A stretch of 55,267 nt of DNA, filler included, from Catajapyx aquilonaris (lineage: Eukaryota): NCBI GenBank assembly GCA_000934665.2. It is 2 parts of 2 records of this genome, joined end to end, with 100 filler letters (N's around TTAATTAATTAA, not from the genome) between each part and the next. Parts side by side here need not be neighbours in the genome. Positions count along the whole stretch, not along the records: positions 1 to 27,569 come from JYFJ02005041.1; 1 more part is not named here. One strand, 5' to 3'. Position 1 is the stretch's first letter. Each line of letters begins with the position of its first letter. Both the position numbers and the translations under genes were made by a program. Positions 9,951 through 24,600 of the stretch are shown here, piece after piece. The notes under the pieces are model-generated. The model worked only from the letters and a program-made list of their open reading frames with translations. It did no database searches and was not told the DNA's origin.

Positions 9951-10956
9951 ATAAGAAGAGAGACATTCGTAAAGAGATGATGTTGTTAGCCGCGGGATAG
10001 GTCGGTTAAATATCGTACATAATTTGCACATTCGACTGCAAGATAGCTATTATTATTAATTGTTGGCAACAGTCGGAAAAGTATCATTAATGACATGAAG
10101 AAACCCTCCGCTTATAACACATCGCTAGCAATGAAACAGGTGCTAATTTATGTAAGCTAAAATATTGAAACGTACGTGGAAAAATACCTATAAAACAAGT
10201 TATATTTCGATATATTTTACCAATGTACTATTGGGCTCAAATTGTTTTGACCACTTTATCCTGGTCTTGAAGCAACCCTTCGCACAGGCCCCACGTTGAG
10301 CAGGTGTGTGAGGGTGTCACGGTCTCGCATAGGGTCTGGGGACCAAGGTTGGTGTTTTGACTGTAGCTCTGGGGACATTCTCCAAATTGTGGGGCCATTT
10401 CGCGTCCCCACAGCAAAAACGCCTGGTGGGGTACTGCTTCAGTGTGGACATGTCCCCACAATTCCATTATGTAGGGTTTTACAAAAGTCCATTTTTCTCA
10501 GCCTAGGTTAGGTAGGGTAGGGTAGGTTAGGTTAGGTTCGATCCGTTTACACTCGCTTCGAAAATGTGTGTTGTCCTTGACCCCACAGCCTATGGGGCGC
10601 AATACTGGGTGTGTGTGAAGGGATGCTTCAAGACCAGGATAAAGTCGCCAAAACAATTTGAGCCCAATAGTACATTGGTAAAATATATCGAAATATACTA
10701 ATATAGCTTGTTTTATAGGTATTTGTTCCACGTACGTTGCAATATTTTAGCTTGCATAAATTAGCACCTGTTTCATTGCTAGCGATGTGTTATAAGCGGA
10801 GGGTTTCTTCATGTCATTAATGATACTTTTCCGATTGTTGCTAACAATCAATAACAATAGCTATCTTGCAGTCGAATGTGCAAATTAAATACGATATTTA
10901 ACCAAACTAGCCCACGGCTAACATCATCATCTCTTTACGAATGTCTCTCTTCTTAT
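9951..10956. mobile_element. Foldback/MITE-like element with about 335-bp terminal inverted repeats
   Basis: 9951-10285 (ATAAGAAGAGAGACATTCGTAAAGAG...) is the near-identical reverse complement of 10613-10956 (...CTCTTTACGAATGTCTCTCTTCTTAT). The spacer carries TTAGG/TAGGG-like units. No unambiguous TSD. Confidence 0.85.
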
Positions 10957-13197
10957 CAGAGCAGGATTTAGCTGTTCTTGTGATTTTCGAGAGGATTATT
11001 TTATCATGCAGGTTTAGCGTTTGATCTTGTGTGCTACACTCCCACATGCAGATTACTATTCATCTTGTAATGTAAGAAAATGAAAATCTTTATAATTCGC
11101 AGGGTAGATCACTGTACTGTACAGTCCAAGCAATATTAAGGCAGGGAAGGTTTTATTACAGAATTGAGCATTACCATTTTCCTCATTTTATTATGATCTG
11201 TCAGGATCGTTCTTTTCCTTCAATCGCTTCAATTTTAGTAGAAGTTATTGAAACTGTGAAGCTCAGTTATGTCCTACCTTTTCAGCTATCTCGGAAATCC
11301 GCATTTTAATTCGCAATTTTGATATTGTTATGATTTTATATTGCCACAAGAGACCCTAGAAAGCTGGGATAATTTCGTGTCATTTTTATGGTAATGGTAG
11401 ACGATGGCTGACTTTTTAGAATTACCAATTATTCACTAAAACTGGAATTAATGACATTAATATGACCAAAATCATGGTTCTACTCTGTACTGTATTATCC
11501 TATTCAAAGTCGTAATCTAGGCAAGCCGTGTTGCAAAATCATTGATTCTATTAAATCTCACTTTTAGCGAACAATCTGCAACTCCAAAAGACGGGCGTTA
11601 TTTAACATTGCTATAGAAAAATTCTGAGGCGATTTTTAATCGAAAAAGCTTACAATTGCTAATTTGAAATGCGGATTTCCGCAATTCCAGAAGAGATAAG
11701 ACAAAACTAAATTTGAATTTGTTATTAGGATTTATTTATTTATTTATTTATTGGGTTTTTTTGGCAGAACAGCGGCAAACATCTATCATTAGGAACCACT
11801 TCAACTAAAGAGTGTATCGCTTCAAGAAAACAATGCATTCACACCTTGAACCATATTAAAATTCAGACATCTCGTACTACCTATTATGTCCACATTAGCA
11901 TTATTTCACAGTTAATAACTTGTGATTCTTTTTATATTAGATGTAATCTGACATGCCCTATTTCCTTCTCAGGTTCGCCTAGTGTTTCTTCAGCTGCTGG
12001 ATTTTGCATGCGGCGACAGACGTCCTCCACCATGACCTGTAAGTAATGTCTTTTCACCATCTGCATCCTGGCTTCTTTCGCATCATTGGAATCCTTGTCT
12101 TGCAAGCAAACAATGTATTAGTCTGATCCGTATCGGTAGCGGGCGAGTTGTAAGGGTAGTTTGAAGCGTCCAAGCTAGCCCTAACTTGTGAAGCGTGATG
12201 AGACCGAGCAAAAGGGGAGTGGAATGATCCGTCCCATGAAATAATGGAGACGCGTGAGCGTGTCGAAATGGAATAATTAGCATGGTGCGCGCGCGTTCCC
12301 TCCCACCCTTCCCGCTTCCCTCTGCTCCACCCCCCAGCCACGCTTCGTTTCGACTATGGCCAAACAACCGTCACTCTGTCTACCATCCATAGCTGAAACT
12401 GGCTCTAGAGCTAGGGGGACTTTTCCCCGAGTCCAGCGTTCCATCCCGCTCGTTTCGCTTCCATCAGCGAACAGTTTAATTGGTCTGCAGTAAAATATTG
12501 ACACACATGACGATTGCGCCGGTCGCCTGGCATTAACATACCATTTGTTTCCGGTTTCAAACACCACGCTAGGATTCTCTCGGAAACGTTCGCGAGAGGG
12601 AAACCTATTGTGCCACCGTGGCTATATAGTTTTCGAGTAGCGCTAACCACCCGGCTCATGTTTAGAGCGTGCAGGACGTGTTTACAGTCCAGTCTGAGCA
12701 TTTACATGAGCGCTCGTGATCGGGATGGTCCGCATATCAGCAAGGATTCATCTATGGGGAGGAGGGGGTTCGTAGCATGTACTACGTACGATTGATGATC
12801 ACCCACCCCTGCCTTTGGGCTTTAGCTGTTGCCCCAGCCAGCCGGGAAGATGAACAGGGGTATTGGGAAGCCTATTTCACTTGCTAGCACACGCTGATGA
12901 AGTAATTCTCTTAGCACGGATGGAACTCACATCCCTTGCACGGTTCATATGACCACACATGCTCATTTGGTGATTTAATGTCCTGTACGCCTACAGTGTT
13001 GCTCAGTCAAATGAATGGTCTATTGACATAATGCTTTATTGTCACATCGTTTGAAGCAGAAAGTACATCCGTGATTATTTCACTCGTAGAATGAAAATGT
13101 TGTTTTACGCTTCATATAACATACAGTACACATTACATTACGTTATAGGCTACTGCAACCCCTGGACACTACCCCTATAATTTTATCTTATCGCCTG

Positions 13198-13800
13198 AAT
13201 CAGTGAGAATTGCGACCTTACAGCAAGGTCGGATGACCTTCAATGCAGTCTGAAATATGACTCCATCTACCTAATGCAGGTTCGCTATGTTTAGCTCGTA
13301 TAACAGTAGCCCATGGTCTTATAATACTAAGGTCTGGTCACTACCTCTTATCGCCTGCCGGGGCTTTTTGCATGAGGTGCTCACTTGAGAACGCCATGAG
13401 ACCGCTTTTCACTGCTACATTATGTGACGGCCCTACCTACCGCGCTGAACTTTATAGGTACAAAAGGGAAGTGCTACATTGGGGGACCCAACATGGTCGC
13501 CGGCGGCCATGTTGGGCCCGCATGTAGCGGCTTCTCTTCTACCTAAGTTCAGCGCGGTCCGGTAGGGTCGCCACATAATGCAGCAGTGAAAGGAGGTCTC
13601 ATGGCGCTCTCAAGTGAGCACCTCATGCAAAAAGCCCCGGCAGGCGATGAGAGGTAGTGACCAGACCTTAGTATTATAAGACCATGGGCTACTGCTATAC
13701 GAGCTAAACATAGCGAACCTGCATTAGGTAGATGGAGTCATATTTCAGACTGCATTGAAGGTCATCCGACCTTGCTGTAAGATCACAATTCCCACTGATT
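13198..13800. mobile_element. About 600-bp spacerless palindrome (MITE/foldback)
   Basis: AATCAGTGAGAATTGCGACCTTACAGCAAGG... pairs with ...CCTTGCTGTAAGATCACAATTCCCACTGATT; centre ACATGGTCGCC|GGCGGCCATGT at 13501/13502. Confidence 0.9.
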
Positions 13801-15516
13801 AGAACCACATATTTGTATGAACATATATAAACACGCCGCATTATGTTGCTGGGGTGACGGGTAACTTGATAAAGTGAAGGAAATTAACACATAAATTAAT
13901 CGTGGCTCTTCCATCTGATGAATTTGTGGACCTAATCAATGCAAATGTTAATTATACGACATAGGTTATACGGAATGTTATGGGAAAAGGGATTGCAATG
14001 CGTAAACCACATGCCTTTGTTACCCCTCTGATAAAGCGTAGAGGTTTTGTAATCATTAACAGCCGCCAATTCATCTTTGTGTACCTTTGTGTACAATGCA
14101 TGATACACATTACACCCTCTCCCCAACTCTACACTCAAAATGTGGAAAAGCCTTTAGGCACTTCATTCGTTCAGTGCAGGTAGGATATAGGGTTACATGG
14201 GGAAATTTTTACTTCACCGCGTTATATATACTTCTCTTTTGACGTCATTGCATATGTGCCATTTTTAGTACGGCGTAATGGAGTATTTTTTAATTAATTG
14301 CCGTCACTTTTTAAAGCCAAATGTCATTTTTAAATATGAGTTGAGATCCAATCATGTTTCAATCTCCGAGAGCGATACCGGTACCCGTTATAGCCATCTG
14401 CACGTGCATGAACTTGGAGTGAGGGCTATATTCCCAGAGAGTTTCGTTCGCAACTCGCCTGCTTCATCTATTATTTTTGAACCATCGTTTGCACTTTGTA
14501 ATTAGCGAAGGCTTATTATTAGCCACCATTTTTACCACACAAATGAAGCCCGGATAAATGGAGAGTCTTTCCTTTCTGAATGGTGTCGCCATTCATATCG
14601 TTAGGAGATTAATTATGTCATGTACGCTGCAAACAAATTCTCGGCTGGCTGAATTACAAGAACTTTGTAAGTAGCACAATTAGCAGTGAAATCAAAGCGA
14701 TAATAAAATTAAGGTGCAGCCACCCTCATTTCCTCTACACCCTTTTCACTGGGTACCATAGAGGTTTTTGCTTATTTGTCGAGTGCCTGCGGAGGTTGCT
14801 ATATCGCAATCATCCCTTCCTCGCATATCATATCCTCCCTCTCTCAGAGGCACCCCTGCAGTTCTGGCTTTGTTACCCTTCAAGTTTGTTGAAACGGAAA
14901 ACTTTAATAATAATTGCAGTGCCCTCCTCGTTAGAGATTAAACGTCCACTAGCCCACAATGTAGCCTACTGTAGCATGAATTGTTAAAGCACTGCTTTAC
15001 ACATTCACCAGGTTGGAGAGATTGTATTTTCAAAGAATTCTGACATTTTCCACCGCTTACACATAATTAGTCCCTCTGCATAGCCTTTCCTCATTGCCTT
15101 AAATTTATAGACTGTATTGGTTTACCTCCGGGTGTATATAGATGGGTACACCGGTACGAAGTCAGATGAAATATGTAGAGCCCTTCACACGCGGTTTCTG
15201 CAGAAGTTCTGTAAGCATTATCTCCATGGCGACCAAGGAGGAGGGTTTTCAGTCCTCCAAGACATTTTAAAGAACAAGCTCTAAATTCTGGCTAATATCC
15301 AATCATCAGATTAGGTAAGAAGTATACTCGGCAAGTTATTATTAATTACCTCGGTGTTACTGTACACGATTGGGTTTTGCCAGAAATGAGGTCTCAACAT
15401 TTTAGAAAGATCGATGAAACAAGGCCATGAAATTTTCAGGTCAGAATTTGCCTTCAGGGTAGAAATGAGTCCTATCAAAAATTTTAAGGCTTTTAATTAG
15501 GCAAATGGACTTATTA

Positions 15517-15800
15517 CAGTGAGCCCTCGTTATTCGCGGTTCAAAATGTTAAATCAATATGCCATTTTAAATTTAAAAATACAACGTGTATTCTTCTTAC
15601 AGTACAGTACTGTATTGTTATAATTATCCTACAAGTATTTTATTGTTAATTATTTCTGTTCATGTCTTAATGCTTATTATTTTGTAATTTAAACATCATA
15701 TTTATGTAGTCTGCGTGTGTTAAAACGTATATTTTATATGGTTCGGTACTATCTGCGGGGGACTTGGTACCAATTACCCGCGGATGACCAGACTGCAGTG
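15517..15800. mobile_element. Degenerate pogo/Tigger-like MITE
   Basis: TA|CAGTGAGCCCTCGTTATTCGCGG ... CCGCGGATGACCAGACTGCAGTG|TA; imperfect TIRs with TA flanks. Confidence 0.45.
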
Positions 15801-18115
15801 TATTGCATTTCAAGCAAAACACTTTTCTTCTTCACAAAAATGTCTGGCGTAAGCGACACAAATAGGACATCTCATGGGATAAACACTCAAGTACGATGCA
15901 GTTGATTGTATACCTTCAGTAATATTTTTCTTTCTAAACCGTCTTCCAAAAGCAGCTTAACCGAGCGAGTTATCTGGACTTGTCCAGCGACAGCCACTTT
16001 GGAAATTACGCTATAATCCGTAAAAAAAAAGAAACAAATTTCTGCCTGAAGAGCTGTAAAAAAGGAGAGAAAGAAATGGAGAGAGTCTGAAGGAAAGGAA
16101 AGGGAAAAAAAGTATCGATATTTTAAAGGATATTTGCGCAGCTGTTGGCTGGTCCTCCGCTGCCATCTCGGGATGACGAATGGCGTTGGTCCATTCATCA
16201 ATTCTTACAAGTGTCACAAGCAAGAAAATGGGAAGGCGAACCGCAGTTGGACGAGATGAGCTGCAGCAGCCCCTCTCCACCCGCCGCGATATTACACTTA
16301 TATTACAAGGTTCCCCAAAAAATTTCTGCGAGTCTCTGACCGACCCGGCTTAGTCTGCCGGAACTTTTACCACCAATTCTAACATGACCAATGACGGGAA
16401 TTAATTCTGAATCAATTTCTAACTGCGGGAATGGAACGTAATTCACTTGAAGTGCAAGAAGAATATTGAATTAAGCAGGACGTGAATAGAATAGGATCTA
16501 ATAGGAGTGGAATAAAACAGAATGATGAGTGATCAAGAATATGTTGACAATCATTTGAAATGTCACCTTGTTTATACCGGCTTCATGACGATAGGCTGTC
16601 AAAACGTTAATTTTTATCTAATGTCCAGCTATAAAATGAGCAATTAAAAACTCATTTTTAAAATTGCAATGTTGTATAGGACCACATTTGGAGGGATGGG
16701 AGGACGGAACCAAGAGGGGGGAGATGACTGACTGGCATCAACAAAGAACCACTGTAAACATGTAAACTTTTGTTGATGGCAATAGCTTTGCAGTAGGAAC
16801 GTCCGGAATAGCTGAAAAGAAAGTTCTTTCTTATACTATGTTACAATCTTGTTTGTTACGCTTCGAATATTTGGGTCAATCAAATCGATTTGGTCGTTAT
16901 GTTCATCCACCAATCAGCACTCATTGCTGTATCACACAGTGCCACAAAAACAACGACGCCCGTGTAAACCCTGCTTATAGGGTGGATACTATAATCATAT
17001 TTCGAGCAAAGACCCAGGGCGAAAGTGGGTGAAAAGACGCGAATAAAGCAAGAGCCCTGCACTTCTGTAGAGGTAAGTCCAGAAACAATATTCTGGTCCA
17101 CTTTGGTCGATTCCAGCCCAAGTGGCTTGGTAAGAAAGAAAAAGTCTTTATGGAAAGTTGTGTAAGAGAATGGAATTGGGCGTGGGCAAAAGGAAGGAGA
17201 TGATGGCCATACAAGGCGCCGCATTTTTTCAATGTTTTTTTTTTCTCCTTTCTTTTTTCTTGAAGAGACGGAGTTTTTCGGATATAGAATGACAGCTCCT
17301 TCCAGCACAGCGGCTGTCCACTGGGGCCTTCGTTCCCCGAACTAAATCTCTTTCATATTATCGAACATTATTTCTACCACCTGCGCCAGGCTGAAAATTG
17401 CCCGCTTCGTGATCGAACGGCTTCTATAAGGAGAACTTCTGCCATCTCCCAGGTTATATTTCCTCCTGAGCTGGGAATAAAATACGCCTGTGCACCATGC
17501 ATTTCCCCCCATTTTATATTACGTACGTAGGTATATACGGGCACTAATCGGAGAAATTGTCGGAAACAGAAGTCTTAATCGCAAAATGCGGGAAATTTTC
17601 AAGCTCATTGAAGTCAAAACTGGTAGTAAGTTTATCTAAGCTTGTATGGTGTCAATCATGGCTGGAAAAAAAAAATTTCATGGGAGGCGACAGGAGGGTT
17701 GTTCGACATAAAGATAATGCTGGAAAATGACTGCCGCCATTCGCGATTGCCATAGGATTGCAGGGGGATTATAGTAACCATAATTTTTACGCCGAATGCA
17801 TGTTGTCATCACTCACCCTGTTTCGTGGATTACAGAATGAAGATTGCACCAAGTGCCGATAACATCTTTACTGCCTCCGCTACAACCAATTTCACATTCG
17901 AAAGGATTTATTGCACATGTACTGTACGGCTTTGTGCAACGTAATTTAACGTGGCGTGTTTGAAACATCCCACCTCCCTTGCTGCTAGACGGAGATTATT
18001 TACATGAATTTTCGACTACGATCCTGTGTTATAATGTAACTTCCTATCTCAGCAACAATTATTGAGAAACCGCATTTTATTATATTGTCAACACCTGCGT
18101 AGCCGGACCAGTCGC

Positions 18116-18426
18116 TGTTGTGTTAGGAGGGAGCTATTGGAAGACTCGACTAGGCTTTGGAATGCCCTTTATCAAGTTTAATGTCAATACACTACTATGG
18201 ATACATAGTAACTATACAACATCCCCCCTTCTCTGGAGGTCAAAAGCCCATCCTGACAGGAGGCCTCACCAGTCTCTTCGGGGGCGTGGGTTCGTATCCC
18301 ACCGCTGCCACCATGTTGTGTTAGAAGGGAGCTATTGAAAGACTCGACTAGAATTTGGAATGTCATCTATAAAGTATAATCAACAATGTAAATACACTAC
18401 TATGGATACATAGTAACTATACAGCA
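18116..18426 (-). mobile_element. TRIM (miniature non-autonomous LTR retrotransposon), 311 bp
   Basis: Direct repeats TG...CA at 18116-18221 and 18314-18426. PBS complementary to the tRNA-Leu 3' end next to the 5' LTR. PPT (CCAGAGAAGGGGGGA, 18222-18236) next to the 3' LTR. 5-bp TSD GTCGC (18111-18115) / GTCAC (18427-18431). Confidence 0.9.
18267..18313 (+). other. 3' part of tRNA-Leu including CCA, forming an extended primer-binding site of the TRIM
   Basis: CACCAGTCTCTTCGGGGGCGTGGGTTCGTATCCCACCGCTGCCACCA: long variable arm, T-arm, acceptor 3' strand and CCA, matching the metazoan tRNA-Leu(AAG-type) 3' half as I recall it. Confidence 0.85.
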
Positions 18427-18500
18427 GTCACCAAAAGATTTCATTGTGACTAGGTGTACTGTGTATACTAGTCATCGCTGGCTACCCATTATGGGATTAA

Positions 18501-18640
18501 AGGTGCCTTTACATGTGAGCAATTTGACGAGCGAAATCTTCGCCGGGGCTGATATTAACAATCGATTTTCGCCTTAAACCATATTAGTTACTTGAGTTAC
18601 TCAGCCTCGGCGAAGACTTCGCTCACATGTAAACGCACCT
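18501..18640. mobile_element. PIF/Harbinger (Tourist-like) MITE, 140 bp
   Basis: TAA|AGGTGCCTTTACATGTGAGC ... GCTCACATGTAAACGCACCT; internal inverted repeat CTTCGCCGGGGCTGA/TCAGCCTCGGCGAAG. Confidence 0.65.
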
Positions 18641-21600
18641 TTTGCCGTGATGTTATTATGACAACACCTGAAACCATCCAGCTTTCTCCATATATGTTTT
18701 TTGGAGAAATCTGTAAATCACTGCGATGTATATAGGTAAGAAATGGTAGGGGACGGAAAGGAAGCTGGAGAAAATTAAAGTGGTTTCATTCCAATCTGAG
18801 GGATGCCTTTAGTCTGTGGAGAACGACAGCTTGGTTCAATCGGCAGCCAAACGGAGGGAATGGAACGTGGCTTGGAGCAGAAAAGTTGAAGACAGAACGG
18901 TCTTCTTCCTACGAAGATCGATCGCGAGCAATCCGTCGTAAAATGCATGATAAGGAATCGCTGGATGCAGTTTCCGCCCGAGTCTCGTCTTTTCAATGTG
19001 CCGTTGCACGGCAGGAAGTTGGGACCGAGCCCCATTAGAAAAAGATAGGGAAAGGCGAGGCGGATTATTATTGACTATTGTTGAGGCAAAAAGAGGGGGA
19101 GACGAGCCAGGGGAGCAGGATCTGGAGCCGATGCTTCCAACAATCAGGATCCTTTTCTAATCACTCTTGCCTGAAGACAAAAGCTAGACGTGCTGTACCT
19201 GTACCTCATCAATCAAGTATTGAACACCAGTTTATCCCTACTCGCACTGACATTAGACTACTGTTTAATCAATTAACGGTGCATTGCGTGCACTCGTTGC
19301 TTGGGAGAGATAAAGTTGGTGGTATGGCGTATTGGCAGTGTACCTAGTCAGCAAAAAGTTAGGGTGAGAAGCAGCCGAGTAACTTCCCAAAAGCCTGGGG
19401 CGAAACGTGCTCTGCGATTATACTTTATGTTCATGTCGGCTGATTACAGTGAGTAGATTGAGGGTAGATAGTACCTTATTAGAAGTGACACCAGCTTGTT
19501 TGTTGTCAGATGCAGGACAATGTTGTGGACATACAAGTGAAACATAGTCTTAAAAGTCAGTTTCGAGATAATGGGGGCAAAAAATTGAATTTGCACTTGC
19601 TTACATGAAGTGAAGGCAGAGAAATAATCCTGGCTCATTATGAATCTTTAGGCTATAAAGCATAGAAAATACTACTTTTCGGTCTAAAAAACTCAAAACC
19701 GACAGAACTGAACTTCGTGGATTTCTCCTGCATGACGCTATGATGTAAATCGTATAAAATTATGATCAAGTACGACCGGCTTCTTCAATTAATAATGTCA
19801 TTAGTTCAGAATCCTGAAGTGCGGAAATGGTTAAAAATTTCGTAGCCGAGGCAGTCTTTGTAACTAGTCTATTAAAGGAGAGTGGCGAAAATAGTAGAAT
19901 AGTCATACTTGTTGACGCGATAGGGACACTTAGAATAATTATCTGTGAGAAACCTTCACATGAAAAATATATTTATGCTGTATAATTGCTGGCGTAGTCA
20001 TCGCCTAAAAGCGGCTTAGTAAATGAATAAAATAAAGGCGTTGGTATGAACATACTCTAGAGACTGAGCAATCCATAAGGCTCTACACTATAGTTTGGAG
20101 GAGCTTCAATCTTTTTCATGAGAGAACTTGATGCGGAATTTAAAGACTTGAAATGCAGAACGATCAGCGGCACATTTTGGTCAGAACCTTGTTGATAGTA
20201 ATACGATACTTCTAATGAATAGCTACGCCGCTGGGTAAAAATTCGAATCTGAAGCATTTTCGTGGACACTTTGATGATGCATTGCTGAAACCCCTGCATA
20301 GTACGCGGTTTAGGAAGGGTAGCAGTGAGTGCTTGTAAGAGATCGAGAGGCGTTACACTTCGCGCTTAAAACTACGCCTCTTCCATGTGATTCCCGGTGC
20401 CGGACACTCCTATTTTACTCCAATTTTTGCCGGAACTGAAAACGGTAGTGGCCTAGGTCCGTGATGGCTTGCAAAACAAAAAAAAACAAAGCGTATGGAG
20501 CAGGTAATTAATCAGGCCAGCTTATAACGTTAGTCGTGGGACAGGATCCGTGTACCATTAAGTACCGTCACCACTTTTGTATTGACATCGTGCAGCTGAA
20601 TTGATAGGACTTGTTTTTGTGTGGGCCGCGCGAGAGGGCTGATTAATGGATATCCGCTGAAGCCTTGTTTGTATCAGCCCTGTGACTAAAAGGGTTCATC
20701 ATTCGTATAAGCCTATTAGAAGTGTGAGCATAGCGAATGGATGGGACTTTGGGAGTAGCTAGCCGAGTCAAGAGCTCTTCTTAACCTCTCCAAGCCCGTT
20801 ACGAATCCCATGTCTTCTCTTTTATCCCCTGCTCTCTCACCTCCACTTGGACTGCGACTTATGGCTTATGTGAGTGCCAGGTTTTTAGACCTTTAAAAAG
20901 TGAATATACCTTTTGCTGTCAAAATAGTTCAATGACATTTTTGCATAGTGATGTGAGGACTACAGCACATATTTTGGAATACAGACTACTTAGCAATGGT
21001 GATTGCAGAGCAGAAGAATGCGGTATTTATAGTGAGATTCAAACGATGTGAAGACATCGAAATTGAGCTGGCATAATACAGGGTATTCAAAGTTCGTGGA
21101 TAGTTTTTTTTAAATAACTGACAATATCGTCCGAAGCAGTTATTTATGTGTAGCTTGTTGTGCCCCGATCCAGGTGCCTCAATACTATCAGGTGGTCGAA
21201 TGGTAGCAGTGGTTATTGAATCGGACACCTGGTTAGGGTCGCAGCAATCTACAAAAATAACAGATTTGAGCGAAATTTCCTATACTTATAACTATTATAA
21301 AAGGCCCCACGAACTTGGAACACCATGTGTATTACTCTAATAGTATTTTCTAATGGTTCTGATAAATACATTACATCTTAGTAGAGAAACGGTTGAAAAA
21401 AAATCACACGTGTAGTAATGCAACGTTCAAAAAATTCTAATACGATATTGGTCAAACGTAACTTTTTATAGTTTCTAATATGAGGATGTGCTCGTATACA
21501 TTCAATATAACCCCAGTTTTTGTACGAGAATATGAGTGCTATAGGACGAGATAGTTTTTCTGCTTAAATCCCGTGCGTTTGTCCGCTCAGTATAAGACTG

Positions 21601-24600
21601 TATAATATCAAAGGGGGGAGACGGTCTTAGGGCAAGAGCACGGACTGAGAGCTTCTATATGTTGGGATCATAACAGAGTCTGGCCCCATCTCTGGCTGGA
21701 TGTTTGGGGAAGAGGGACTAAATAATAAACTGGCCCAGGTTATGTACCCTGCCTTATTTTAATGGGACTTAAAGCGGTGGTAAGGGGGAGAATATCATCT
21801 AACCCATTATTTTGATCCCAATCTGAAAGTAAGAGGGGCGGACAATGAGGGTAAGGGGAACAAATTAACCGATGCGTGATTTTGAATGATATGGACGTGA
21901 GAAGGATATGGCAGCGATGACGGCATTAATTTATGGAGTTGAATTTTTCAAGGTTATTATACTAATAATTATTTTAAAATTTGATGCTAATTGTACAACA
22001 GCAGGGTGTATAACTTCTATTGTAAAACATATTCGATGATTAGTTGCTAGGTTGTGCACTGTCACTGTAGCGTACAATATTGTACATCCTGAAGTGGTCA
22101 TCTGCTGCTCATTTTCTTATCTCGGAGTCACACGCGTTCAAATACTAAGCTGGAAACTGCTTTATTGACGATGAAAAGTAGTACATCGGAATATCCCTCT
22201 GAAGTTAATGAAAATGAGAATCTTTAAACCCATATTTCACGATCAATTTTAGCCACGTGTAGGTCTGTTCGCCAATGCAGAATACTATTCAATTACTGCA
22301 AAAGTTGTAGAGAGGAAAGTTTGACAAACGCCGTGATTAACCCGAACCCCCTACCTAATCTAAAATTTGACTTGACCTATTGCATGCGCCCTACCCAATC
22401 CCAGTACTAAGCAACGCATGATGAATCAATCAGAGGCAGAAATAGCAAAAGGGGGCAGTGGAAGATTGACTGGTGGGTTGGTAATTGTGCCATCCATTTC
22501 GGACGCGAGATGCCCATTTTCCAGCCCACTTGGTTTGCTGACGACATCATGCAAGCGCATAACCCTGCAATCCTTCCAGATGAAATAAGGAGTCCGCGGA
22601 GAAAAATGAGAAAAAGAAGAAGAAGAGTTGCGGAGCCCCAACTGGCGTTGGTTCGTGAGGCGCCTGGATATCACAACGATAGCAGAGCTCAACCCTCCTC
22701 CTCAACCCCCCATCCTTCCCAACTCAACCTCATTTCATTCCACGCCCTTGTTTTCGAGCGAGTATTTTCTCACTATTCGTACCCTTACTAATGCATGCTC
22801 TATGTGACGGGTATATTGCACTGATTTGATTAGAATCTTTCCCGGATATGGATTTTCTTTTTCGAAAAAAAAAATGAGCTGGTTAGATGGGGAAGGCAGC
22901 CATTTCTCTGCCGCTGCGTGACGCTGCTGTATTAGCAAGCTCCCTCCTGTTTAGTATGGCGTCATGTGGGAAACGAACAGTTGTTGATTTTTATAACAAC
23001 GAAATGTGCTAAGCATTCTTATAAACTGTAACCGCAATTAAATGCAAGTCGTTACCATTTTTCTGCCAACCAAACATACGAGTAATGTCCAAACGCTTCA
23101 GAGAAGTAGAAACTTTTTGTCGTAGTTGCCAGTGTCGCGTGGCAAAAGGAAAGAAAACTTGGCCGACGTCGGAAGATGGCACCATGAAAAACGATCGGTG
23201 AAGCCATTTACGTCATCTTCAATAGCATTTGGGACTAGGATTTCGGCAGCAAGTTAAGAAGCAAAAAAATGACAGCTAGTTTTTATGAAGACTGATGACG
23301 ACCAGGATTGCTGGCATACATGCAAAGATGATGGAAAAGTAAACAGGAGACTGTGTCCTTTCAGAAAGTAGTCAGTTTGCGGTCCCGGAGTCCCCCCTCG
23401 CCCCCTCTTCCTTCTACCCCTGGTTCTTCATCATTATGCATCTAGGCCCAGAGAGAGCCTGGACAAAAACTTTGCAGTGTCGTGCAGTAATCGATGTTCC
23501 AATTTCGCTCCAGAAGCTTTGCTGGGGATTGCTTTTTTTCCTCTTCTTCTTACCTCTGCCTGCCTCCTCAATAACAAAAGAAGAGGAGGCCATTCCAGGT
23601 GCAACTCAACTGTAGACCTTTTCTAAAAGCACCTTAACTGCACTGTACTTTTCCCAGCCGACCTGCCACAGCTTTTCTATGAAAACTGAATGTAAGCTCT
23701 CACCCTTGTCCCTCCTTCCGCCACCCCACTACCACCGCAGCTCTTCCATTGATTGTTCCAGGATGGACAAGAGAACCCCAGGGGTTAGGGATTTGATCAA
23801 AGTCGCAGGCAGATCTCACGCCGGAGTCGGGGGACAAAGTGGCCTCTCCTTTAAGTTGCACAGCATCCAGGACCGTATCAAGCCCAACGTTACGTGACAT
23901 CTGACCAGAGTAATCTACTATTTCCAAGTCGCTTGCAAACGTCTGGAGACCGGAGCAGTACAGAACTTATGTAATGTCGTGTGACATTACATGTCCTTCA
24001 TGGCAGAATTACTATATGTTATTGATCTTGTCCGTTCTAGTTTAGTGGAACTCGTAATGTGACAAAAATATATCTCTAGGTAGTGAACAAAGACACGATC
24101 CCCTTAGGCGTAGCAGGTAGTGGTCGAGGTGAAAGAAGTATCGTAGACTGTTATCGCGATGTAGATAATTGAAGGGTTCTCTGCAATAAGAAGGTGCCTT
24201 CTTTATAGCTTTTTCGCTTTAAAACTCTGGAAAATATTTTTAACTACCTACTGCAAAGATCTCTAAGGCGTAAGGCCTACGTGGCGCCTTTATGTGGTAA
24301 AAATGCTAATGACACAAGCCTTGCACCTGTATCTGAGCATATAGTAGGTAGGTGGCGCCACCGCGGTGGCTTACAATAACCCGATTATTTCAGTAAATGT
24401 GCATACCACATATATGAAAATGGTGGCTTTCAATTCTAAATGGTACGGATCATCCGGTAATAGCATCCAAAAAATATCCGATTAAAATTATGTGTCATGT
24501 TGGCAGGTGAAAGTTTGTGACCCTTGACACGAGCCTAATAGACTTGAAATTTCAGAATATTTTTGAAGTAATCCCCTATTCATAACCTTTCAGTTATGTA

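Follow-up and report, generated by a model that had tools for sequence, protein, structure and literature searches.

Positions 18116–18426 of the window, as the whole 55,267-nucleotide stretch of Catajapyx aquilonaris DNA analyzed here is termed, contain a 311-bp element that is best explained, and probably correctly so, as a one-off by-product that arose during the reverse transcription of a Gypsy-type LTR retrotransposon, by aberrant plus-strand transfer after read-through of m1A58 in the primer tRNA, and that was then integrated. The element is oriented on the minus strand and comprises, in order, a 5′ LTR, 47 nt that are antisense to tRNA-Leu, a further 45 nt and a 3′ LTR, with the 92-bp interior placed between direct repeats at 18116–18221 and 18314–18426. 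About half of this interior (47 of 92 bp) is tRNA-derived, as had been noted in an earlier sequence-only reading of the DNA.

Anatomy of the element and its parent family

The features identified between 18111 and 18431 are as follows.

18427–18431, no strand: target-site duplication (TSD) copy flanking the 5′ LTR; GTCAC on the plus strand, the same as the other copy at 4 of 5 positions
18314–18426, minus strand: 5′ LTR, 113 bp, TG...CA; seven substitutions compared to the 3′ LTR
18301–18313, minus strand: ordinary 13-nt primer binding site (PBS) of the family, tRNA-Leu(AAG/TAG); the same 13 nt and the family leader in 11 of 21 matches
18267–18313, minus strand: 47-nt copy of primer tRNA-Leu(AAG), positions 76 to 38; tRNA sense on the plus strand
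18295, plus strand: T at tRNA position 58 (A in the host); would reflect dA inserted opposite a presumed m1A58, the methylation itself being predicted
18267–18274, minus strand: junction microhomology between the tRNA and the family pol end; GTG and up to 7 of 8 nt
18222–18266, minus strand: last 45 nt of the parent interior, comprising the end of the pol frame and the polypurine tract; from family alignment
18222–18234, minus strand: polypurine tract (PPT), within the last 45 nt of the interior
18116–18221, minus strand: 3′ LTR, 106 bp, with a 7-nt deletion; the same as the 5′ LTR at 95 of 106 positions, with four substitutions on this side
18111–18115, no strand: TSD copy flanking the 3′ LTR; GTCGC on the plus strand

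The element occurs once, is dead and shows no sign of a function. ARAGORN called no tRNA gene in the window, Rfam yielded only sub-threshold matches there (a tmRNA at the tRNA end and mir-610 at the neighboring hairpin), and no ORF of at least 100 aa within 12000–24000 overlaps the element. Four DNA sequencing runs, all of one sample from one study, contain 71–88% of the sequence words, but do not provide independent support because they possibly are the source of the assembly itself. No RNA run is among the sequencing runs listed as holding these words. Nested inverted repeats with 22- and 24-nt arms, which are MITE-like and have a sub-threshold Rfam match only, are located beside the element at 18499–18642. 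The window also harbors two elements with long terminal inverted repeats of 234 and 240 nt (9951–10956 and 13198–13800) and a 70-nt tandem array (~863–1674).

A search for an LTR-type CA followed by the first 13 PBS bases, a pattern that misses matches with T at its last place, located 21 sites. Eleven belong to the parent family and carry its own leader after the 13-nt PBS, nine belong to other families in which the tRNA match spans 17–20 nt, and the remaining site is the window, which alone among the 21 runs on into the tRNA. The sequence-only reading had assumed the usual PBS of 18 nt, whereas that of the family is 13 nt and the excess in the window is 34 nt. The family appears to be Gypsy-type judging by the integrase position and by motifs, the fetched copies being devoid of RT: copy L042 possesses an Integrase_H2C2 domain near the 3′ LTR (Pfam, E 3.9e-16), and copy L040 has a gag-protease-like frame with CCHC and DTGA motifs discerned by eye. 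A Pfam search of L040 gave no match. The family may belong to a Mag-like clade. The family pol frame ends ...GRFVRPPVRMDV, and the last 45 interior bases of the window correspond to this frame end and the PPT. All four two-LTR copies of the family that were measured are internally deleted, and copies L010, L015 and L039 are flanked by exact 5-bp TSDs. The last of these (L039:512–1002, G000:C6) is a young 491-bp deletion copy with LTRs identical at 127 of 128 positions, a normal 13-nt PBS and no tRNA excess beyond it.

The layout of the element agrees with that of a TRIM, which PMC10886601 defines by two LTRs, a PBS, a PPT, a length <1 kb and lack of coding capacity: it is non-coding and <1 kb with two LTRs, PBS and PPT at the interior ends and a TSD that matches at 4 of 5 positions. 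The earlier description as a miniature LTR element, in the sense of a mobile TRIM family, nevertheless is not supported, as the tRNA-pol junction pattern with ≤2 mismatches matched genome-wide only the window in an assembly fragmented into 20,583 contigs. Moreover, a BLAST search in which 40 of 67 candidates were scored returned 45 matches including the window, mostly LTR ends, and none of the 44 others spans both interior ends. Several copies that share one interior, as a TRIM family would have, were not found by these searches, and the T58 of the window is private since its junction lacks a second copy in the assembly. As the junction was found once, the element is considered a one-off deletion product; that it instead is one copy of a mobile TRIM family in which the long PBS is a fixed feature is very improbable, even allowing that copies may be missing from the fragmented assembly. 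TRIMs, among them Helenus, share with the element the short non-coding format, two LTRs, PBS, PPT and tRNA-derived sequence. Helenus, however, occurs as families and has its tRNA-like sequence within the LTRs, where it provides a Pol III promoter (PMC10886601), whereas here the antisense 3′ part of a tRNA is continuous with the PBS, lacks an A box and occurs once. Pol III boxes inside the LTRs, the hallmark of Helenus/TRIMp3, were not found; the tRNA match is interior and covers positions 76–38 only.

The primer tRNA copy and the base at position 58

Plus-strand strong-stop DNA is described as being ended by m1A58 with a second stop near 54 (PMC8599865; PMC11251516), although the role of m1A58 in this termination has long been debated and was shown mainly in vitro for retroviruses (PMC8599865). 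Human tRNA-Leu isoacceptors carry both m1A58, at which mismatches are produced, and m1G37, at which RT stops (PMC5066629); AMV RT also is reported to be blocked by m1G (PMC8062790). Together with A58 and G37 in the host genes, these human data lead to the prediction that host tRNA-Leu is modified at both positions.

The tRNA segment that includes CCA beside the 5′ LTR (18267–18313), detected in the sequence-only reading, is identical to host gene L036 in 46 of 47 nt, with position 58 as the sole mismatch, and to host gene L032 in 45 of 47 nt. Identity with L036 breaks at G37 and the last matching base is C38, so that the match stops before the anticodon. T at 18295, which corresponds to position 58, is the base given by the assembly, and the host base proved to be A, not T, in all seven ARAGORN-called tRNA-Leu genes (six AAG, one TAG). 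A genome search with N at position 58 gave eight matches, namely seven tRNA-Leu genes and the window. As in an over-extended plus strand, the copy is antisense, continuous with the PBS, placed directly after the 5′ LTR and furnished with CCA. The CCA does not prove an RNA template for the window because L036 and L032 encode genomic CCA after the discriminator. Genomic CCA opens the 3′ trailer in these two of the seven Leu-AAG/TAG genes and in the Ala gene L079, and in L036 is followed by T, which stretches the match to 49 of 51 nt. This extended match would suit recombination or repair of the PBS at the DNA level from a CCA-encoding tRNA-Leu gene, followed by a neutral A-to-T change. Such an event nevertheless requires the chance change at 58 (1.7%), and the TSD fits a single integration of a finished structure. 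Parallel copies elsewhere in the genome carry CCA, whereas it is absent from 19 of 19 Lys gene-type matches and from 3 of 3 matching Leu(CAA) genes, and the 5′ terminus of the full-length copies is that of the mature tRNA. An origin at the DNA level is thereby left with very little probability, and the 47 nt very probably are an RT copy of the primer tRNA.

The LTRs of the element have accumulated 11 substitutions in 2 × 106 positions, a decay of ~5% per site, and LTR identity in three other two-LTR family copies is 127/128, 105/105 and 98/99. Chimeric LTRs derived from two subfamilies were ruled out, as none of the 11 differences recurs in more than 1 of the 29 other family LTRs in an alignment that omitted eight LTR matches without an identifiable start. 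With this decay, 2.4 changes are expected in 47 nt and one was observed. The LTR decay of ~5% gives a neutral change at position 58 a chance also of ~5%, or 1.7% to a named base, and the window alone therefore is weak evidence of a copying error: by itself it is suggestive, not decisive. A primer tRNA that was copied by RT, but with T58 as a later mutation and the end at 38 set by chance microhomology, would be in keeping with this age, with the number of changes expected and with the microhomology contained in the junction. Against this explanation, the sole change falls on the one position that was predicted beforehand, T58 is found in four of five Leu copies, earlier stop positions also had landing sites, and the end at 38 is repeated in copy L171 (see below). 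Later mutation is improbable on these grounds, and T58 is in all likelihood a misincorporation.

The claim of m1A58 read-through with error, for which the window provides little on its own, is supported by independent events elsewhere in the genome. Among CCA-bearing tRNA copies that extend past position 58, the base is non-A in 9 of 14 (P 1.3e-6 at 10% background), and five retain A58, including L171. Searches left free at 58 yielded non-A in 9 of 12 copies with the window included, the count being extended from 12 to 14 by two decayed Lys lineages with A58 (L163 and the L164 array); omission of L087 and L090 gives 7 of 12. A pattern search that required non-A at 58 was excluded from all counts. 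Linkage to an LTR is shown by members of the respective families in the case of the window, L171, L089 and L087; for the other copies it is suggested by a terminal motif.

A T-arm search for tRNA-Lys(CTT) returned 25 matches: position 58 was non-A in five of the six with CCA, compared to none of the 19 without CCA (Fisher p 1.1e-4). Seven of 59 Lys-PBS matches extend through positions 57–52; the base at 58 is changed in five of the seven (to G, G, C, T and G), whereas position 59, which was left just as free, is unchanged in all of them. Three Lys copies with CCA span the entire mature tRNA, as far as its 5′ end at position 1, and have C, T and G at position 58; across the other free positions they differ from the gene at only 2 of 150. 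In the first (L089:1404–1750, G000:C1264), the whole mature tRNA-Lys(CTT) with CCA and C58 is flanked on either side by identical 122-nt LTR-end repeats, and a decayed ordinary PBS comes after the second of them. The other two, with T58 (L090:1457–1532, G000:C1847) and G58 (L091:1332–1407, G000:C11902), are called as genes by ARAGORN; L090, which has a direct repeat of 15–16 nt at its flanks, may have been made by a LINE. The G58 of L087 is shared with L120 and may have been inherited from the family leader. Among matches to tRNA-Leu(CAA/CAG) with G57, 11 of 12 have A58 and no CCA, and the twelfth, L086, has both CCA and T58. The Leu copies L170 and L197 also have T58, so that with the window counted T58 is present in the four of five cited above, L171 being the one that keeps A58.

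Other candidates were dropped from the count: L092 (Ser-like, G58, host gene not found), L131 (mismatch at 57), L079 (an ordinary tRNA-Ala gene), L198 and L199 (tRNA-Leu genes with a TAA-type anticodon) and further sequences judged to be chance or SINE-like matches from their T-stem and general resemblance to a tRNA, an assessment made by eye with a minority of them fetched. The searches also revealed several other arrangements. Five of the 59 Lys-PBS matches (L120, L126, L144/L145 and G000:C1835:6871) reach positions 57–55 and then stop, with non-A58 in all; they may be mutually related copies and resemble the lentiviral primer over-extension sequence. A decayed tandem array (L164:892–1135 and 2164–2202, G000:C1123; L163) is composed of whole tRNA-Lys, CCA and a short LTR-end piece with A58 throughout. 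Fold-backs in which two PBS or tRNA-end copies point toward or away from one another around a short palindromic core were seen at L088:1411–1519, L139, L144 and L170:1250–1389, and an LTR end with a Lys PBS is repeated in tandem with periods of 24–52 nt at L125, L131, L134 and L148.

The end of the copy at position 38

The sequence-only reading placed the end of the tRNA match at about position 38. The visible end is indeed C38, but GTG (tRNA positions 40–38 on the element strand) is common to the tRNA and to the family pol end, where it was found in 10 of 10 distinct 3′ copies, and tRNA copying therefore ended somewhere in 41–38. The junction homology is 7 of 8 nt in two of the ten copies (L004 and L012) and 6 of 8 in the remainder. 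Landing sites of 7/8 quality are present for many other stop positions, as judged from five family copies.

An end at 38 recurred in L171 (1–227, G000:C20110), a 227-bp contig that was found after this end had been predicted. Here an LTR end is followed by 49 nt in which every base agrees with three intronless host tRNA-Leu(CAA) genes (49 of 49). This tRNA copy retains A58 and terminates exactly at position 38, where a microhomology of 6 nt links it to a point that lies 1446 nt inside the interior of the family. The LTR family differs from that of the window and has a normal PBS of 18 nt. Among the remaining Leu copies, the match stops at 49–52 in L086 and L170, and the decayed L197 ends ambiguously between 39 and 33. 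The visible end at 38 thus is seen in the window and L171, blurred by microhomology of 3 and 6 nt, respectively. An end at the named position has a chance of 1.7% in a single copy; for one of the two long copies the figure is 3.4%, and for one or more of four it is ~6%.

Host Leu genes carry G at position 37, whereas host Lys(CTT) has A at positions 9, 26 and 37, and the three copies made from the latter primer, which lacks G37, run to position 1. The anticodon loop alone is therefore no block to RT. Another Lys copy, L088, likewise without G37 in its primer, shows a strict match as far as 44 and a loose one as far as 38. Although m1G37 probably caused the stop, a primer that was cleaved in the anticodon loop, with run-off at the end of a 3′ tRNA half, or a structural pause after the same transfer and m1A58 error, would yield an identical sequence. 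Host Leu(CAA) genes with an intron exactly at 37/38 (L150 and L152) imply that 3′ halves that start at 38 exist for that isoacceptor, and this alternative also draws on the A58 of L171 and the loose end of L088 at 38. It is opposed by the 49-of-49 match of L171 to intronless genes and its poorer fit to the intron-bearing ones, by the intronless state of the Leu(AAG) genes that were fetched, and by the passage of three Lys copies to position 1. Cleavage or pausing accordingly is unlikely, but more credible than the alternatives discussed for position 58. Thus, from the earlier proposal of termination near m1G37, the end itself recurs once, in L171, whereas the attribution to the modified base is shared with a cleaved primer that would look the same.

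From the arrangement of these sequences, we infer the following order of steps, as well as both modifications. Plus-strand synthesis from the PPT would have copied the LTR and then run into a still attached tRNA-Leu(AAG) primer, where RT would have passed m1A58 by insertion of dA, read as T58. The T-arm, the variable arm and the 3′ strand of the anticodon stem would then have been copied before synthesis halted once C38 had been reached, with m1G37 as the most likely obstacle. Too long to finish at the PBS, the new strand may instead have paired through its 3′ GTG (7/8 nt) with a minus-strand site that lies 45 nt ahead of the 3′ LTR, whereby the entire coding interior would be dropped. The two-LTR product presumably integrated and then decayed without further copying.

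Relation to known reverse transcription products and significance

The closest precedents are products of HIV-1 RT in vitro, which according to PMC13191261 end at 58, 55, 54, 37 and the tRNA 5′ end, with only those that end at 58–54 said to serve further synthesis. As proposed for the Catajapyx copies, plus-strand synthesis of minor products in the P1–P5 set passes m1A58 of the primer and ends at a later modification, with P5 at 37 and P1 spanning the full tRNA (PMC13191261, PMC8599865). The HIV-1 products were obtained in vitro with a retrovirus and tRNA-Lys3 (ms2t6A37), and P1 and P5 are portrayed as dead ends (PMC13191261). In contrast, the Catajapyx copies are integrated and inherited, stem from LTR retrotransposons with tRNA-Leu (G37) or tRNA-Lys(CTT), are rescued by microhomology and leave the inserted base visible. 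Pulsinelli and Temin in 1991 and Colicelli and Goff in 1986 reportedly described retroviral deletions that arose from faulty second strand transfer, and cloned retroviral DNA with tRNA between LTRs; an over-extended plus strand is said to have moved to a short homology such that the interior was deleted or tRNA was left beside the LTR. Those examples reportedly were single-round laboratory products, whereas the copies described here are germline fossils.

The primer over-extension sequence of lentiviruses and spumaviruses also shows tRNA complementarity past the 18-nt PBS, but is a conserved 4–5-nt genome feature (PMC13191261), whereas the excess of 34 nt in the window is private and adjoins a deletion. 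Sequencing of tRNA discloses mismatches at m1A58 and stops at m1G37 on tRNA-Leu, with laboratory enzymes that act on purified RNA (PMC5066629, PMC8062790); the Catajapyx copies instead record a natural RT in vivo and are read from genomic DNA. In a review of PBS variation in mouse ERVs, modification-made errors inside the PBS were looked for and none were found (PMC7472051). A literature search whose coverage included little of the older subscription literature returned no paper on inherited genomic LTR copies with a modification imprint.

Overall, a known failure mode of RT here is integrated, inherited and recurrent, and bears what is probably the signature of primer modifications. Products described as unusable can integrate, which offers a route to mini-elements and to CCA-bearing tRNA pseudogenes. 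These LTR-retrotransposon insertions are in vivo evidence for methylation of the primer at 58 and for occasional passage of RT through this base with an error, and they suggest that RT probably then stops at position 37. They also carry a warning for annotation, since three such copies were called as tRNA genes by ARAGORN, and supply a cheap genome-only test of modification stops. The broader proposition, which we favor slightly, is that tRNA modifications have left fossils that can be read from genomes: RTs of LTR retrotransposons would repeatedly read through m1A58 in the germ line, products supposed to be dead ends would be rescued through microhomology and integrated, and the base at 58 together with the stop (38 for G37-bearing Leu, position 1 for Lys-CTT) would report the modifications of each primer and how natural RTs misread them. 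If this is true, assemblies could be mined for maps of tRNA modification and for the error spectra of RTs in species and periods from which there are no RNA data.
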